From the NCBI GenBank assembly GCA_025726505.1, contig GCA_025726505.1_4340.1: a DNA stretch of 42,918 bases. One strand, given 5' to 3'. This document shows positions 2,502 to 37,591 of this stretch, in pieces. Origin of the DNA: a phage. The position numbers were made by a program, and so were the translations under genes. The notes under the pieces are model-generated. The model worked only from the letters and a program-made list of their open reading frames with translations, was not told the origin of the DNA and ran no database searches. The number at the start of each line of letters is the position of its first letter. The stretch's first letter is position 1.

Positions 2502-3034
2502 TCGTAGTGAACCTCTTTTTCTTCTCCGCAAAGCCGGCACTTATTAGTCTCTACCCCGGCGGAATACTGCACTACCCTCCAATCGTGTTTGCATTCCTGA
2601 GTATCGTTTTTCGGTTTATATGCCTTGTCGTCCCACTCACGTTTACCACATTTAGAGCAAAGCTCACTACCAGGAACGTTGTTCGGATTGCCTTCGCTGA
2701 GAAACAACCCAGGCATAATAATCCAAGAGTGCTCGCATTCCTGAACGTCTTCCTTACGGCAACCGGATTGCTCGGGTCCGTGTTCGCCTACTACGTAGCT
2801 CTTCCATTTAGGCAGTGGGCCGCCGTGGTTGGTTACACGGTCGAAGTCCTCATTCATTAGTTTTATTGTTTCCTGCAACTCAGCCACCAGCGCCGAAGCA
2901 TCACGTAACTGGTTCTTGAGTGACAACACCTCATGGGCCAGGTCTTCGCACTGTTGCTTGTAGGGGTTGTTCGTTAGCTGCTGCCGTAGTTGGTTAAGCA
3001 GGAACTCGATTACTGCGTCGTTGTTACTGTTCAT
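2498..3034 (-). CDS. Coiled-coil protein with two tandem zinc-ribbon-like repeats
   Basis: 178-aa product; N-terminal heptad-like region (LLNQLRQQL, LKNQLRDASALVAELQETIKL); internal repeat QECEHSW...CSKCG and QECKHDW...CRLCG. Confidence 0.7.
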   Translation of the reverse strand: MNSNNDAVIEFLLNQLRQQLTNNPYKQQCEDLAHEVLSLKNQLRDASALVAELQETIKLMNEDFDRVTNHGGPLPKWKSYVVGEHGPEQSGCRKEDVQECEHSWIIMPGLFLSEGNPNNVPGSELCSKCGKREWDDKAYKPKNDTQECKHDWRVVQYSAGVETNKCRLCGEEKEVHYE

Positions 3035-3149
3035 CTTCTACCTCCCCGAAGAACGCGCACGCAGTATCTGCATCGCAAATAATTGGTCTGTCTGTTGTCA
3101 CATATGCCGATTGGCTCTCACCCAAAGTCATTTCGCTGTAATTAATCAT
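3024..3149 (-). CDS. Candidate 41-aa leader micro-ORF
   Basis: ATG 3149 preceded by GAGGAGAGAG; stop overlaps the start of the 2498-3034 gene; below the ORF-track size cutoff. Confidence 0.3.
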   Translation of the reverse strand: MINYSEMTLGESQSAYVTTDRPIICDADTACAFFGEVEDEQ

Positions 3150-3180
3150 CTTCTCTCTCTCCTCTCGCTTCGATAACTGA

Positions 3181-3209
3181 ATAGTATTCTATTATATCTG
3201 TGTGTGCAA
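3181..3209 (-). promoter_or_regulatory. Promoter-like element copy A (TTGCAC-N17-TACTAT with internal AATAG-N4-CTATT)
   Basis: Minus strand reads TTGCAC (3209-3204), 17-nt spacer, TACTAT (3186-3181); near-identical to copies at 4359-4387, 25820-25848 and 35100-35128. Confidence 0.5.
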
Positions 3210-3402
3210 GTAAATTTTATTGGTGTTTAGTGTCGCTAATTAACGACAGTTTCGTTGTTGCGATTTCCGCAAGAATCAGCGCCACTGTTGCGTTTCGTGA
3301 AAGTGTCGCCTTTTGACGACACTAAGCTAAAGTTGTACGCTGCTGTGTAGCAGCGTAAGTCACTCAGTCAATTAGTAACCTTTTGACCTGTTACACCACC
3401 TG

Positions 3403-3591
3403 TTATACCGGCGAGGGCGGCTCTGGTAACGGCATCCAGTGAGTAATATCACCGTGATATAAACTCTTTGCGGGACCCCAGTAGCCATCTGAATTAACCC
3501 GCATAACCTCACAGCCGACAAAACCATCAGTTACAAGAACGTATTCGTAAGGCTCCGGCATCCGCTCACTACACTTAATCCACTCGCTCAT
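3403..3591 (-). CDS. DUF551-like phage protein
   Basis: 62-aa product ends ...GDITHWMPLPEPPSPV, the characteristic DUF551 motif as recalled. Confidence 0.75.
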   Translation of the reverse strand: MSEWIKCSERMPEPYEYVLVTDGFVGCEVMRVNSDGYWGPAKSLYHGDITHWMPLPEPPSPV

Positions 3592-3594
3592 AAA

Positions 3595-3738
3595 TCACCC
3601 CTTATTCATCGCATACTGCACACCAGCTTTCCACGCCCGCCACGCGAGACGCGTCTTAACGTTCAGGTACTCTTTCTTAGAACCCTTGTTAACTGGCAGA
3701 CCCTCGACGATGGCCCACCGTTCAAATGCTTCTCTCAT
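3595..3738 (-). CDS. Candidate 47-aa hypothetical protein
   Basis: ATG 3738 preceded by GAGGA; stop overlaps the start of 3403-3591; below the ORF-track cutoff. Confidence 0.4.
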   Translation of the reverse strand: MREAFERWAIVEGLPVNKGSKKEYLNVKTRLAWRAWKAGVQYAMNKG

Positions 3739-3741
3739 AAC

Positions 3742-3942
3742 TTAGTCCTCAATAGTCACATATTCACGTCTACGCACGTACAGTTCTTCCCCGCAATGCT
3801 CAACTGTACACCCGTAATCGTTATAAGTTATAACCTCGAACTCATCGCCTACTAATACCCCAAAATATCTCAGTGGATGGTCGCAATATCCCGGCGGAAG
3901 AACATAATCAACATCAGTTATACGAATTCTCATTAACGGCAA
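3742..3942 (-). CDS. Hypothetical protein (Cys/His-containing)
   Basis: 66-aa ORF in operon register; CDH...C-x4-HC arrangement. Confidence 0.5.
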   Translation of the reverse strand: MPLMRIRITDVDYVLPPGYCDHPLRYFGVLVGDEFEVITYNDYGCTVEHCGEELYVRRREYVTIED

Positions 3943-4324: not shown

Positions 4325-4358
4325 AACCCTCGCTCCTCTGTCTCGTTCCGATAAGTGA

Positions 4359-4387
4359 ATAGTATCCTATTATGTTGGGGTGTGCAA
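4359..4387 (-). promoter_or_regulatory. Promoter-like element copy B (TTGCAC-N17-TACTAT)
   Basis: Minus strand TTGCAC (4387-4382), 17-nt spacer, TACTAT (4364-4359); leader TTATCGGAACGAGA..GAGG resembles the leader after copy A. Confidence 0.5.
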
Positions 4388-7539: not shown

Positions 7540-7556
7540 AGGGGCGTTAAGCCCCT
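7540..7556. terminator. Hairpin between convergent primase and XRE genes
   Basis: AGGGGC (7540-7545), loop GTTAA, GCCCCT (7551-7556); overlaps the 3' end of the minus-strand XRE gene. Confidence 0.45.
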
Positions 7557-7762
7557 TCACCGAACGCCAGCCACTTGGCGTCTACTTGTAGCACTCCCGC
7601 CAGTTTAAACAGCGTCGCCGGGCGGACGTCCTGAGTTACACCGAGTGCTAGCTGGTTAATTGCGCCCTGGGAAACGCCAGCCATGACCGCCAGACGGCGC
7701 TGGGAGATGCCGAGTTCTTTACGGCGTTGTTCTACGCGAATGCCTAGTTCAGATGGTTGCAT
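7547..7762 (-). CDS. XRE-family (Cro/cI-type) HTH transcriptional regulator
   Basis: 71-aa product with canonical HTH LGISQRRLAVMAGVSQGAINQL; divergent from the rightward operon. Confidence 0.8.
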   Translation of the reverse strand: MQPSELGIRVEQRRKELGISQRRLAVMAGVSQGAINQLALGVTQDVRPATLFKLAGVLQVDAKWLAFGEGA

Positions 7763-7790: not shown

Positions 7791-7809
7791 TGAATAGTAC
7801 CATATTAAT
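7791..7809. promoter_or_regulatory. Operator-like motif copy (TGAATAGTACCATATTAAT)
   Basis: Imperfect copy of the AATAG-N4-CTATT core, 29 nt upstream of the XRE gene start. Confidence 0.4.
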
Positions 7810-25819: not shown

Positions 25820-25848
25820 TTGCACACCCCAATATAATAGGGTACTAT
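25820..25848 (+). promoter_or_regulatory. Promoter-like element copy E (TTGCAC-N17-TACTAT)
   Basis: TTGCAC (25820-25825), spacer ACCCCAATATAATAGGG, TACTAT (25843-25848); 28 nt upstream of ATG 25877. Confidence 0.55.
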
Positions 25849-25876
25849 TCACATGTAACTTACTGAGGAAATAATT

Positions 25877-34284: not shown

Positions 34285-34548
34285 CTATTCCAGAATATTC
34301 CTCACGTAATCCTGCAACATGAATACTTTCAGTCTCAGTTGCCGTACGCATTCGGCGTTCTGAACGTCGATAGCTAAATCCTCGTCAGCGTCGCTACTTG
34401 GCGCCGCCAGCTTGCACGGCGGCTGCATCGTCATCGTATCCGGGGATGGAATTGGCGTTTGTGACGGCACGGGACTTGAGCAGGACGCGAGCATCGTCGA
34501 AAGTGCACACGCTGCGGTCAGGCGTTTTAATGTACTTAACGACTTCAC
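34285..34548 (-). CDS. o-spanin (Rz1-like outer-membrane lipoprotein)
   Basis: Signal peptide with lipobox LASC, Pro-rich mature region (SSPVPSQTPIPSPD...QPPC); overlaps the i-spanin gene out of frame. Confidence 0.55.
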   Translation of the reverse strand: MKSLSTLKRLTAACALSTMLASCSSPVPSQTPIPSPDTMTMQPPCKLAAPSSDADEDLAIDVQNAECVRQLRLKVFMLQDYVRNILE

Positions 34549-34780
34549 GGGTAATTACCTCAGATTTCGTCTTGCCTTCGTTGTCAGCGGCTGCGGCCTT
34601 CGATTCATCCTGCTGCTGCCGTTGTGTTTTCTTCGCTAACTCAGCCTGTGCTTTCTGCTGTTGCTGCGAAACGAGATTCGCCCGGCCCTCATTCCAGCCA
34701 CTGCGGTACTGGTAGATGCCGTGTGCGTAAGCCAGGATGATGAAACATGCTCCCGCTACGACAGTTGCTTTAAGATTCAT
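34394..34780 (-). CDS. i-spanin (Rz-like)
   Basis: 128-aa product with N-terminal TM anchor (VVAGACFIILAYAHGIY) then charged helical region (QQQKAQAELAKKTQRQQQDE). Confidence 0.55.
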   Translation of the reverse strand: MNLKATVVAGACFIILAYAHGIYQYRSGWNEGRANLVSQQQQKAQAELAKKTQRQQQDESKAAAADNEGKTKSEVITREVVKYIKTPDRSVCTFDDARVLLKSRAVTNANSIPGYDDDAAAVQAGGAK

Positions 34781-34804
34781 GTTTCTCCTTTCTCGATAAG
34801 TAAA

Positions 34805-34824
34805 GCCCCGCCATAAAGCGGGGC
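34805..34824 (-). other. GC-rich hairpin upstream of spanin genes
   Basis: GCCCCGC-CATAAA-GCGGGGC, 25 nt upstream of the i-spanin start on the minus strand. Confidence 0.45.
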
Positions 34825-35031
34825 GCTAGTCCTTATCATTTAAACATAAAAACGGCGTAATCTCAGTAAACCAGCTACTTTTTACACAAGCAATAGAGTA
34901 TGGCCCTTCCGAACGCGTCAGCGTAACTACACTCAGGACTTACGTCCCGCTCCGTTACCTGCCCGCGCCGCGGTCGCTTGTTCATACTTCACAAGCTCAG
35001 GTGGAGCTTAGCACATTTTCAGTGAAAAGTC

Positions 35032-35047
35032 AACTATTCGAATAGTT
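35032..35047. promoter_or_regulatory. Perfect 16-bp palindrome AACTATTCGAATAGTT
   Basis: Self-complementary; abuts a minus-strand TTGACT -35-like hexamer; related half-site array at 34262-34299. Confidence 0.55.
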
Positions 35048-35099
35048 TATTCCAACATTTACAATTGAGCGGAATAACTGGAATACGTAGACAAATAGT

Positions 35100-35128
35100 T
35101 TGCAGACACCAATATAATAGGGTACTAT
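35100..35128 (+). promoter_or_regulatory. Promoter-like element copy F (TTGCAG-N17-TACTAT)
   Basis: TTGCAG (35100-35105), spacer ACACCAATATAATAGGG, TACTAT (35123-35128); 27 nt upstream of ATG 35156. Confidence 0.55.
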
Positions 35129-35155
35129 TCAGTTAACTTAAACAGGAGATGAAAA

Positions 35156-35971
35156 ATGAAACATGTAATCAGTTTTTCAGGCGGCAGAACATCAGCGTAC
35201 ACAACCCTTGAAGTGCTTAAACTTCACCCGGATGCTGAGGTTATTTATATGGATACCGGGGCGGAGCACCCAAAGACCTACGAGTTCATCCGTAATTTTG
35301 CTAAGCACTTTAATATTACGGTGACGTGCCTGCGGGTTGTTCCTAACCCAGAAATGCGTAAGGCCAGTACCTATGAAGTCCTTAGCGTAGATGAAATAGG
35401 TCCTGACCTGGAGCCGTGGCGCAGAATGCTGCGCAAGTACGGTCACCCATACGTCGGCGGCGCGTTCTGCACAGACCGGATGAAGACGGTGCCGTTCACC
35501 AAATACTGCGACGAGAAATACGGCAAAGGAAATTATGAGCGCTGGTTGGGAATTCGCTGTGACGAGCCAAAACGACTTGGCAACCGTGGACCGGGATTCC
35601 ATTACCTTGCAGACATTAGCGACTTCGAAAAGCAAGACATACTCGAGTGGTGGTCGCAACAATCATTCGACCTTGGCATTGAAGAACACTTAGGTAACTG
35701 CGTATTTTGCATCAAGAAGAGTTTACAGAAGGTTGCACTAGCGGCGAAAGACGAGCCACAACTCGCAGCGGAGTTCTGGCAGATGATTCAGGACGAAGAT
35801 AAAAAGGACGACAAGGTAATGTACCGTTCGAACCGGAGCCTTGGCGAGGTCATCGCTTTGTTTGGCAGTGAAGACCGCGCAGAACTTGCGGTCCGTATGC
35901 GCTCAATGCGGCAGTACGACACAGGGTCATGTAGTGAAAGTTGTGAGGCATTTTCTTCCGAAGAATACTAA
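35156..35971 (+). CDS. PAPS reductase-family PP-loop enzyme
   Basis: N-terminal PP-loop HVISFSGGRTSAY; C-terminal Cys motifs GNCVFC and GSCSESC; single opposite-strand gene inside the head module. Confidence 0.75.
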   Translation: MKHVISFSGGRTSAYTTLEVLKLHPDAEVIYMDTGAEHPKTYEFIRNFAKHFNITVTCLRVVPNPEMRKASTYEVLSVDEIGPDLEPWRRMLRKYGHPYVGGAFCTDRMKTVPFTKYCDEKYGKGNYERWLGIRCDEPKRLGNRGPGFHYLADISDFEKQDILEWWSQQSFDLGIEEHLGNCVFCIKKSLQKVALAAKDEPQLAAEFWQMIQDEDKKDDKVMYRSNRSLGEVIALFGSEDRAELAVRMRSMRQYDTGSCSESCEAFSSEEY

Positions 35972-35994
35972 ACTTCGTTAAAGAAATAAAACTA

Positions 35995-36013
35995 AGGCCC
36001 CATAACGGGGCCT
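35995..36013. terminator. Bidirectional terminator after the PAPS-reductase-like gene
   Basis: AGGCCCC-ATAAC-GGGGCCT followed by TTTTATCATT. Confidence 0.7.
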
Positions 36014-36017
36014 TTTA

Positions 36018-36479
36018 TCATTCTGGCTTAGTAACCTTCGCCGCTTTACTTACCGCCTCTACGCCATCGGCATCGGTAACTTTCACGAAGTAATCACCCA
36101 CCGCGTTGACCGTCAGAGACAAAGCCTCTTCCGGCGCGTTAACCACTTCCTTTCCGTCTTTAAACCAGGTAAGAGAGTACGGTGCTTTGCCCGCCTTAAC
36201 CTCGACAGTGATAGTTGCGCTGCCGTCCGCCAGTTCAGTGTCTTTCGGTTGCACAGAGAAATACACATCGCCAGCGTCCGCCAGATACGGAATCTCGTAA
36301 AGCATGCCCGCCGCAGGTAGCGCAATACCGGTTTTATCCGCAAACGGCATATCGTCTACCGGTGTGCCTAGTACACTTTCGTCCCCAACAGACACCACGT
36401 TCTCACCGGAGCCAGACACGCGAGCAAACTGGACTACGCGACGCGACGGTACATCAGTTACTTTGAAAAAGCCCATCAT
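36018..36479 (-). CDS. Ig-like domain protein (second decoration-type protein)
   Basis: 153-aa product with KAPYSLTWFKDGKEV...GDYFVKVTD, paralogous to the Ig-like motif at 31736-32077. Confidence 0.55.
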   Translation of the reverse strand: MMGFFKVTDVPSRRVVQFARVSGSGENVVSVGDESVLGTPVDDMPFADKTGIALPAAGMLYEIPYLADAGDVYFSVQPKDTELADGSATITVEVKAGKAPYSLTWFKDGKEVVNAPEEALSLTVNAVGDYFVKVTDADGVEAVSKAAKVTKPE

Positions 36480-37555: not shown

Positions 37556-37565
37556 ACTATAAGAA

Positions 37566-37581
37566 AGCCCCTTTCGGGGCT
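37566..37581 (-). other. Intra-operon hairpin between portal and head morphogenesis genes
   Basis: AGCCCC-TTTC-GGGGCT. Confidence 0.45.
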
Positions 37582-37591
37582 ATATGTGAAC

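Follow-up and report, generated by a model that had tools for sequence, protein, structure and literature searches.

A lambda NinC ortholog carried as exchangeable cargo in the head-gene block of a Kagunavirus-like phage, with a possible role in counter-defence

The stretch of DNA considered here comprises 42,918 nucleotides (nt) of phage sequence (contig GCA_025726505.1_4340.1 of NCBI GenBank assembly GCA_025726505.1), to which we refer in its entirety as the window. It represents a Kagunavirus-like siphovirus (Guernseyvirinae) that is ~91% identical to phages of E. coli, among them XY2 and the BASEL isolates Bas70-76. Among its late structural genes lies a plus-strand open reading frame (ORF), evident from the ORF list and the sequence, that encodes a protein of 271 amino acids (aa) with the N-terminus MKHVISFSGGRTSAY. 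This protein is a full-length ortholog of lambda NinC, and belongs to the phosphoadenosine phosphosulfate (PAPS) reductase branch of the PP-loop (adenine-nucleotide alpha-hydrolase) fold. The NinC-like gene runs counter to late-block transcription, and both flanking genes are located on the minus strand. A preliminary description of this DNA had noted a plus-strand gene carrying the PP-loop SFSGGRTSA and placed it between two minus-strand head genes. The gene, its loop and its opposite orientation are as described, and the right neighbour is a head gene, but the left neighbour encodes a spanin and therefore belongs to lysis. Leftward beyond the spanin are the scaffold and major capsid genes, whereas the head morphogenesis (Mu F-like), portal and terminase genes follow to the right. 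The base composition of the ORF does not set it apart (49.8% GC versus 51.0% for the window), and the ratio of nonsynonymous to synonymous substitution rates (dN/dS), computed against three homologous copies, is 0.055, 0.075 and 0.061. The gene is therefore real and under purifying selection.

A BLASTP alignment with lambda NinC (Orf290) exhibits 49% identity over residues 1-269 of the 271 (E 9e-97) and takes in the C-terminal DTGSCSESCE motif. The profile of PHROG 33262 matches residues 1-266 with an E value of 9.1e-102; it and PHROG 424, both named 'phosphoadenosine phosphosulfate reductase' and placed in the category 'auxiliary metabolic gene', match end to end. Relatives annotated as NinC are 65% identical in P22-like Salmonella phages and 62-63% identical in T1-like phages, and the top database relative of the window protein reaches 94% identity (E 4.8e-175). 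The family is large. A tblastn search of phage genomes returned 546 records with a NinC-like gene, a 90%-identity protein collection yielded 2559 matches at E <= 1e-5, and a 50%-identity library held 3085 matching clusters at E <= 1e-3, of which 314 matched at E <= 1e-30. Among 5426 complete E. coli genomes, DNA-level comparison detects a copy in at least 269 (at least 5%), and none of these copies is close to the window gene. A recent transfer from sequenced E. coli prophages was considered and rejected, given that no copy covers 80% or more of the gene and that identities range from 60 to 80%. What is new, therefore, is a gene ~90% identical to a few uncultured or recently deposited copies, within a family that is known, widespread and biochemically uncharacterised. 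One member is irregular: the homolog in Erwinia phage Midgardsormr38 aligns in two pieces, and its annotated 340-aa protein covers just 52% of the query, which points to a frameshift in that gene or to inserted sequence, possibly that of an intein or mobile element.

The NinC-like gene is monocistronic between a predicted promoter and a terminator. The 32 nt of the promoter copy (35100-35131) are found again at four further sites in the window, and the conserved promoter box ATAATAGGGTACTATTCA, which occupies 35114-35131 (+) here, recurs at 3178-3195 (-), 4356-4373 (-), 7791-7808 (-) and 25834-25851 (+). Its core ATAATAGRRTACTATTCA, which falls within TTGCA[CG]-N17-TACTAT, is present five times in the window, where 100 shuffles gave an expected count of 0. 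As we read the sequence, the −35 hexamer is TTGCAG (35100-35105) and the −10 hexamer is TACTAT (35123-35128), separated by a 17-nt spacer, and a perfect TATAAT at 35113-35118 overlaps the promoter copy. The remaining copies of the box stand ahead of small-gene clusters, a helix-turn-helix (HTH) regulator and a DNA-repair exonuclease operon, which gives the box the appearance of a promoter that the phage uses routinely for early or accessory genes. Judged by this promoter type alone, the NinC-like gene is probably expressed early. A generic sigma-70 scan called no promoter within 34700-36100, because TTGCAG agrees with TTGACA at only three of six positions; this negative was set aside, as the repeat analysis recovered the phage's own promoter. 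The hairpin downstream of the gene is scored as an intrinsic terminator on both strands.

Other features of these signals may bear on regulation. The promoter box holds the inverted repeat AATAG-N4-CTATT, and its half-sites also form a perfect palindrome of 16 nt (AACTATTCGAATAGTT) at 35032-35047, ~70 nt upstream of the NinC promoter. A gene for a 71-aa HTH regulator (7550-7762, minus strand) lies directly downstream of one box copy, and we consider its product a candidate repressor or activator of the box-bearing promoter class.

Comparison with close relatives reveals that the signals stay in place while the gene between them changes. All 182 high-identity phage records at this locus cover just 48% of a 1.6-kb query, which corresponds to the flanks only, and the NinC-like gene is absent from these near relatives. 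Homology of ~94% to Bas70, XY2 and SHAK7693 stops at 35158, the last base of the ATG, and restarts at 35984-35988, just ahead of the terminator hairpin; at the same site these phages hold one plus-strand ORF of 67, 173 or 63 aa. Every cargo ORF that was aligned is preceded by the shared promoter and 5′ untranslated region (UTR), ATAATAGGGTACTATTCAGTTAACTTAAACAGGAG-N7-ATG, and every cargo ORF examined is followed by the terminator motif AACTAAGGCCCC-loop-GGGGCCTT. When IMG/VR was searched for exact matches to the 5′ arm, ten additional sockets emerged. A single ORF of 173, 94 or 67 aa, running up to the terminator motif, occupies nine of them; the remaining one (L012) showed no such motif within 3 kb. 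Across the sockets examined, cargo sizes are 271, 173, 94, 67 and 63 aa, with one interchangeable ORF in each. In two metagenome contigs, the socket position used in the window is likewise occupied by a NinC-like gene, with 94% and 89% aa identity.

A second socket site, between the head morphogenesis and portal genes, is empty in the window. In SHAK7693 it contains a 173-aa ORF, with positions 3206-3281 of L007 (76 nt) being 91% identical to 35085-35158, and in the Salmonella Jerseyvirus S4lw it contains a NinC-like gene (82% nt and 89% aa identity). Thus, the Guernseyvirinae head block includes a fixed expression socket in which a single ORF is swapped and nothing else. Recombination in the shared arms would exchange the ORF alone, which would explain both the unrelated small ORFs at the same place in close relatives and the NinC-like gene at the second site in S4lw; given that the same arms are present at two sites, cargo can move between them. 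With its own predicted promoter and terminator, its orientation opposed to the late transcript and its variability among relatives, the gene has the attributes of a moron. The preliminary description had called it one and had assigned it its own promoter copy and terminator, all of which is borne out; exchange through the socket makes that view more precise.

Several database records for these loci merit comment. The 173-aa cargo occupies either slot, depending on the phage, and is variously misannotated as a sliding clamp or as RusA; its match to DNA_pol3_beta_2 is sub-threshold only. In the S4lw record (OQ660438.1) the product names are displaced by one gene, such that the NinC-like ORF is named 'portal protein' and the head-morphogenesis gene is named 'PAPS_reduct domain-containing protein'. 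Phage vB_AbaM_AB4P2 (L009, OR544125.1; 45.7 kb) carries an 87% identical NinC-like gene at 2995-3813, a third position that adjoins the gene for the terminase large subunit. This phage was deposited as an Acinetobacter phage, and because its head-gene layout resembles that of Guernseyvirinae, the host assignment may deserve checking.

Conservation within the NinC family was assessed on an alignment of 124 representatives of 50%-identity clusters. The family signature residues are all present in the window protein and, save for G9 and T12, are 95-100% conserved among the representatives. In the glycine-rich loop (signature SGGxTS), S8 and S13 are found in 118 of 118 sequences, G10 in 117, G9 in 113 and T12 in 107. 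Five cysteines are invariant in the family, arranged as three (C105, C182 and C185) plus two (C259 and C263), and a conserved R134-x-D136-E137-x-x-R140 motif lies between the first and second of these cysteines. Other essentially invariant residues are T34, G35 and E37 (DTGxE), K110, G132, G180, N181 and K188, whereas C58 and C118 are conserved among close relatives and not more widely. An AlphaFold2 model built with 26 homologs has a mean predicted local distance difference test (pLDDT) score of 82.9 and a predicted template modelling (pTM) score of 0.83. The predicted fold has a Rossmann-like alpha/beta core with an N-terminal nucleotide-binding loop, as expected of a PP-loop protein, and its C-terminal tail (residues 255-271, which includes C259 and C263) has pLDDT values below 50 and is disordered in the model. 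No solved structure was found that is close to the window protein, and a fold search of the viral BFVD collection added nothing functional.

On the most literal reading of its database label, the protein would be a genuine PAPS or adenosine phosphosulfate (APS) reductase, and thus an auxiliary metabolic gene product that boosts sulfate assimilation. The PHROG category says as much, the best structural matches of the model are APS/PAPS reductases, and the PAPS_reduct profile search proposed in the preliminary description does give a score above the Pfam cutoff (PF01507, 35 versus 22.5 bits). However, the Pfam match is confined to residues 3-64 (positions 2-63 of 175 in the model), and the structural matches have template modelling (TM) scores of merely 0.44-0.52, with 19-21% identity over ~160 residues. 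The NCBIfam models for true reductases are all missed by more than 100 bits: NF002537 (24.4 versus a cutoff of 154 bits), TIGR00434 for cysH (18.6 versus 165.1), TIGR02055 for APS reductase (18.2 versus 235.3) and TIGR02057 for PAPS reductase (17.7 versus 254.2). CysH enzymes use a catalytic cysteine within a C-terminal ECGLH motif, which is carried on a flexible tail. The window protein has no CG[LI]H motif anywhere in its translation, its tail instead reads DTGSCSESCEAFSSEEY, and its loop is SGGxTS rather than the SSSFGIQA of CysH. Some of its relatives, described below, are also fused to DNA methyltransferases. By sequence, then, the window protein is not a sulfate-assimilation PAPS reductase, and a role in boosting that pathway is scarcely credible. 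With regard to the preliminary description, which spoke of a PAPS-reductase- or DndC-like enzyme with C-terminal cysteine pairs typical of that group, the assignment to the PP-loop superfamily stands, the loop is not lost in the alignment, and the pairs C182xxC185 and C259xxxC263 are invariant; however, the cysteines do not follow the classical PAPS-reductase pattern, the CysH cutoffs are missed by a wide margin, no DndC profile is matched, and the identity with lambda NinC had been missed.

A different affinity is evident among defence enzymes, as measured by PADLOC profile matches to SspD, DndC and BrxP. The SspD profile, for which there is no curated cutoff, matches residues 2-143 of the window protein with an E value of 2.6e-13 (profile positions 1-124 of 277), and the BrxP profile gives E 8e-5. 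Among 46 diverse family members, SspD was matched by all 46 (best E 2.8e-20), BrxP by 22 and DndC, at E <= 1e-3, by four. Published evidence indicates that DndC is a PP-loop ATP pyrophosphatase in which three cysteines hold a 4Fe-4S centre and a further dyad of cysteines is believed to pass sulfur on (PMC10853773).

These data bear on two further explanations. First, the protein might be a non-catalytic decoy that mimics host DndC or SspD and poisons the modification-restriction complex by binding its partners, as would fit a similarity to SspD that lies in the N-terminal half and a phage that has no partner genes of its own. However, the nucleotide-binding loop, the RxDE..R motif and the five cysteines are invariant down to clusters that are ~30% identical, which indicates retained catalysis, and we consider a decoy highly improbable. 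Second, the three-plus-two cysteine pattern is compatible with three-cysteine iron–sulfur (Fe-S) thiolases, and hence with modification of RNA (transfer RNA (tRNA) thiolation or a lysidine-like change) or of a free nucleotide or cofactor that tunes host translation or metabolism. This proposal is very unlikely to be correct, considering that the protein has no RNA-binding extension, that its top match in the defence library is SspD, and that the fusion partners of the family are DNA methyltransferases and not RNA enzymes. The window also contains no tRNA genes, and there are no Rfam families in or around the NinC locus.

A link to DNA comes from fusions. Among the 150 best cluster representatives, seven are long proteins in which a NinC domain is joined to another domain: phage Dam (PF05869) in five, at either the N- or the C-terminus, a D12-class domain (PF02086) in one and an NPPF-motif domain in one. 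That such fusions arose independently, in both orders and with several families of methyltransferase, argues for an action of the NinC domain on DNA. N6-methyladenine (6mA) has been reported to substitute for phosphorothioate (PT) in protecting against DndFGH, which would make sense of the fusions to Dam.

One fusion of this type has been tested in a defence setting. The N-terminal domain of p0018 from Vibrio phage 44E38.1 is 56% identical to the whole window protein, including the CSESCE tail (E 8e-107). Along with the adjacent p0019, it is one of the sole genes specific to phages that infect Dnd-carrying Vibrio crassostreae, and a sensitive phage that received p0018 and p0019 became able to plate on a host that retains Dnd (Piel et al., bioRxiv 10.1101/2021.05.05.442762). 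Since a Dam domain with 96% identity was already present in the sensitive phage, the NinC-type domain and/or p0019 made the difference. The preliminary description had left the function open between DNA or nucleotide modification and counter-defence, which was a sensible guess, but given that this anti-Dnd experiment already implicates a NinC-domain protein, the function is no longer entirely open. Phage PAPS reductases also figure among the candidate anti-defence genes of variable regions in a 2026 survey of Aca-regulated operons (PMC13551039). The anti-Dnd protein JSS1_004 was also considered as a precedent and was dismissed, as it is a T7 gp0.7-like kinase unrelated to the NinC-like gene. 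Kagunaviruses are reported to be highly sensitive to restriction-modification (RM) systems (PMC11990801), and therefore a DNA-protecting accessory gene would be useful to the lineage.

The same observations could be accommodated by a non-PT nucleobase modification, such as ATP-dependent thiolation or amination at or near methyltransferase-target adenines, that blocks conventional restriction enzymes. This alternative draws on the repeated joining of the NinC domain, in either order, to N6-adenine methyltransferases of three kinds, and on the fact that Kagunaviruses are limited mainly by RM systems. We nevertheless rate it unlikely, given that the closest profiles are those of SspD and BrxP, which are not base modifiers (QueC reaches just E 0.12), and that the scanned ORFs of the window include none for precursor synthesis or for a transglycosylase.

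Indeed, partner genes of any kind seem to be missing from the window, in agreement with what had been noted from the outset. PHROG scans of 20 ORFs, nearly all from the early/accessory class and without a separate scan of each of the many ORFs below 70 aa, revealed no methyltransferase, no Dnd gene (DndA/IscS, DndD or DndE), no Ssp gene (SspA, SspB or SspC) and no deazaguanine gene. Likewise, tblastn searches with the Dam, D12 and NPPF methyltransferase domains and with the Vibrio p0019 protein gave nothing meaningful in the window. In the absence of Dnd or Ssp partners there, the window protein is best regarded as a relative of those enzymes and not as a member of such a system.

Taken together, we estimate at about one in two the probability that the NinC-like gene encodes an early-expressed, ATP- and Fe-S-dependent DNA-modifying enzyme for counter-defence, probably directed against PT-type restriction (Dnd/Ssp). 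Such an enzyme would mark the phage's own DNA, or interfere with marking, and so escape restriction that reads modifications. The SGGxTS loop would bind ATP and adenylate the substrate, following the chemistry of DndC and SspD, and C105, C182 and C185 would hold a [4Fe-4S] cluster. The C259/C263 dyad on its flexible tail would take sulfur from the host cysteine desulfurase (IscS) and deliver it. Given that the phage lacks a DNA-targeting partner, the stand-alone form probably borrows host DndDE or SspBC, whereas in the fused relatives the N6-adenine methyltransferase domain may supply DNA targeting. Dependence on host targeting proteins would also explain why NinC is non-essential for lambda on E. 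coli K-12 (PMC10695390), and why it showed no interactions with phage proteins (PMC3224144). A more elaborate version, wherein NinC is a self-contained writer of a DNA sulfur mark (PT or an undescribed thio-modification) and its stand-alone forms hijack DndDE/SspBC and IscS, is doubtful in our judgement. On that account, the mark would let an infecting phage genome pass as 'self' in PT-positive hosts, and the Dam-fused forms would bring their own targeting module.

Dispensability in lambda also bears on the proposal that NinC serves phage DNA recombination, replication or repair and not defence evasion. Gene order offers some encouragement for this idea, in that lambda ninC sits between the gene for NinB (the Orf recombination mediator) and the NinD-NinG block, and the gene in Klebsiella phage SBP is flanked by endonuclease and primase/helicase genes. 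However, the copy in Tunavirus ULIM2 sits among hypothetical genes, and in Guernseyvirinae the gene is an optional single-ORF cargo that is missing from the 182 relatives. Since, in addition, the fold and motifs bear no resemblance to recombination proteins and lambda can do without the gene, such a role is distinctly unlikely.

Readers should approach the counter-defence hypothesis with appropriate caution, as a number of observations weigh against it. No DndC profile matches the window protein at E <= 1, and the alignment to SspD is restricted to the N-terminal half. Classical ATP pyrophosphatases have an SGGxDS P-loop, and because the NinC loop has Thr in place of the Asp, ATP use is not certain. 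The Vibrio transfer moved two genes and a fused Dam, such that the share of the NinC domain was not isolated, and the promoter type is the sole basis for the early timing of the window gene. The dispensability of lambda NinC fits an enzyme that depends on host partners but fits other roles equally well. The literature on NinC describes it only as non-essential or uncharacterised. NinC genes in unrelated phages have no conserved neighbours, and thus there is no guilt by association beyond the fusions. Finally, we know of no novel base or unusual modification in lambda DNA despite decades of study, a point that counts equally against the proposal of a nucleobase modification.

The coordinates of the features discussed above are collected in Table 1, together with those of the neighbouring genes.

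Table 1. Features at and around the NinC-like gene, in window coordinates
Feature	Position	Strand	Basis or remark
NinC-family ORF	35156..35971	+	271 aa + stop; homology, dN/dS
Promoter copy (predicted)	35100..35131	+	Repeat analysis, aligned copies
Shine-Dalgarno (SD) sequence AGGAG	35144..35148	+	7 nt before ATG; kept in all socket copies
Terminator hairpin AAGGCCCCATAACGGGGCCTT	35994-36014	both strands	Scored as intrinsic terminator on both
Socket 5′ arm (promoter, 5′ UTR, SD, ATG)	35085..35158	+	Conserved in relatives with other cargo
Socket 3′ arm, including bidirectional terminator	35984..36014	.	Homology resumption and terminator call
Second socket site, head morphogenesis / portal	37556..37591	.	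Empty in window; ORF coordinates
PP-loop SFSGGRTSA, residues 6-14	35171..35197	+	Family signature SGGxTS
Cys105 (FCTDRMK), candidate Fe-S ligand	35468..35470	+	124/124; role by analogy with DndC and APS reductase
R134-x-D136-E137-x-x-R140 (GIRCDEPKR)	35555..35575	+	R134 124/124, D136 122/124, E137 124/124, R140 124/124
C182-x-x-C185 (GNCVFCIKK), candidate Fe-S ligands	35699..35710	+	Both 124/124
C259-x-x-x-C263 (GSCSESCE), candidate sulfur-relay or catalytic dyad	35930..35944	+	C259 118/118, C263 121/122
Rz-like i-spanin, left flank	34394..34780	-	PHROG 2536, E 6.9e-55; annotation in relatives agrees
o-spanin reading frame	34285..34548		Embedded in Rz-like spanin locus
Hoc-like head decoration protein, right flank	36018..36479	-	PHROG 3945, E 3.3e-84

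Between the spanin gene and the socket lies a region of ~300 nt (34781-35084), either non-coding or containing a small ORF, that is 94% conserved in relatives. A hairpin resembling a terminator lies in it on the minus strand (34805-34824), ahead of the spanin start, and no Rfam family matches the region. It may hold regulatory sequence, such as a late promoter, that serves the spanin, scaffold and capsid genes.

Although ordinary as an instance, the gene is of value for bringing the question of NinC function into a small virulent phage. NinC is widespread yet has no known activity, even in lambda. The window amounts to a natural experiment, wherein promoter and terminator are fixed and the gene between them is all that varies, and cultured, near-isogenic relatives (BASEL Bas70-76) hold other cargo in the same socket. 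Counter-defence is therefore directly testable by swapping one ORF in a 43-kb, restriction-limited phage. If the gene does permit evasion of PT-reading or other DNA-reading immunity, this would bear on the prediction of host range and on the engineering of therapeutic Kagunavirus and Jerseyvirus phages. The socket in itself offers a ready-made site for inserting payload genes. If NinC proves to write a sulfur mark, then one of the last uncharacterised lambda genes would gain a biochemical function, and a new class of anti-restriction would emerge that completes rather than blocks a host modification pathway.

How this locus compares with known systems can be considered at the level of the genetic unit and at the level of the protein. 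A moron, as defined for HK97 and lambda, comprises a promoter, an ORF and a terminator inserted in a late operon. Like phage morons, the window gene is an autonomous unit among late structural genes that differs between close relatives, but unlike them, its promoter and terminator are fixed backbone, and the ORF alone varies, the breaks in homology falling at the ATG and immediately ahead of the terminator. The lambda and P22-like NinC proteins are likewise stand-alone and share the SGGRTS loop, the same five cysteines and the CSESCE tail. Lambdoid ninC, however, lies in the early nin operon between ninB and ninD, whereas the window gene is a single opposite-strand ORF in a socket within the late head block of a virulent siphovirus.

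At the level of the protein, the window protein resembles CysH in having a DTGxxxPxT motif and a cysteine on a flexible C-terminal tail. Unlike E. coli and Vibrio CysH, it keeps the glycine-rich loop, and against PAPS/APS reductases of known structure (PDB 2goy, 6vpu and 1sur) ~160 of its 271 residues superpose at ~20% identity. The best PDB sequence match of a deeper family profile is chain C of 21fy, 'PptA' (E 1.5e-7), a protein of 270 aa that shares the C..LK and NCxxCxK motifs of the NinC family, with its NNCVGCVKG segment aligning with the C182-x-x-C185 motif. PptA differs from the family in having a degenerate P-loop (FSCGAPSA).

Among phosphorothioation enzymes, DndC provides a parallel for the cysteines, as the NinC family has three plus two that are conserved, from which cluster binding and activity in NinC may be proposed by analogy. 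The length of the window protein is near that of the SspD profile (277 positions), but its C-terminal half does not align with SspD, DndC or BrxP. Unlike the genes of SspD and DndC systems, the window gene is phage-borne and not part of a defence island, with no desulfurase, DndD/SspC or DndE/SspB nearby. A further parallel is p0018 of Vibrio phage 44E38.1, which belongs to the one anti-Dnd phage cassette put to the test so far. It differs from the window protein in having a C-terminal Dam domain (PF05869) and p0019 (DUF6475) as a neighbour, both of which the window is without. Like the window gene, p0018 is accessory and variable, differing among phages whose genomes are otherwise nearly the same.

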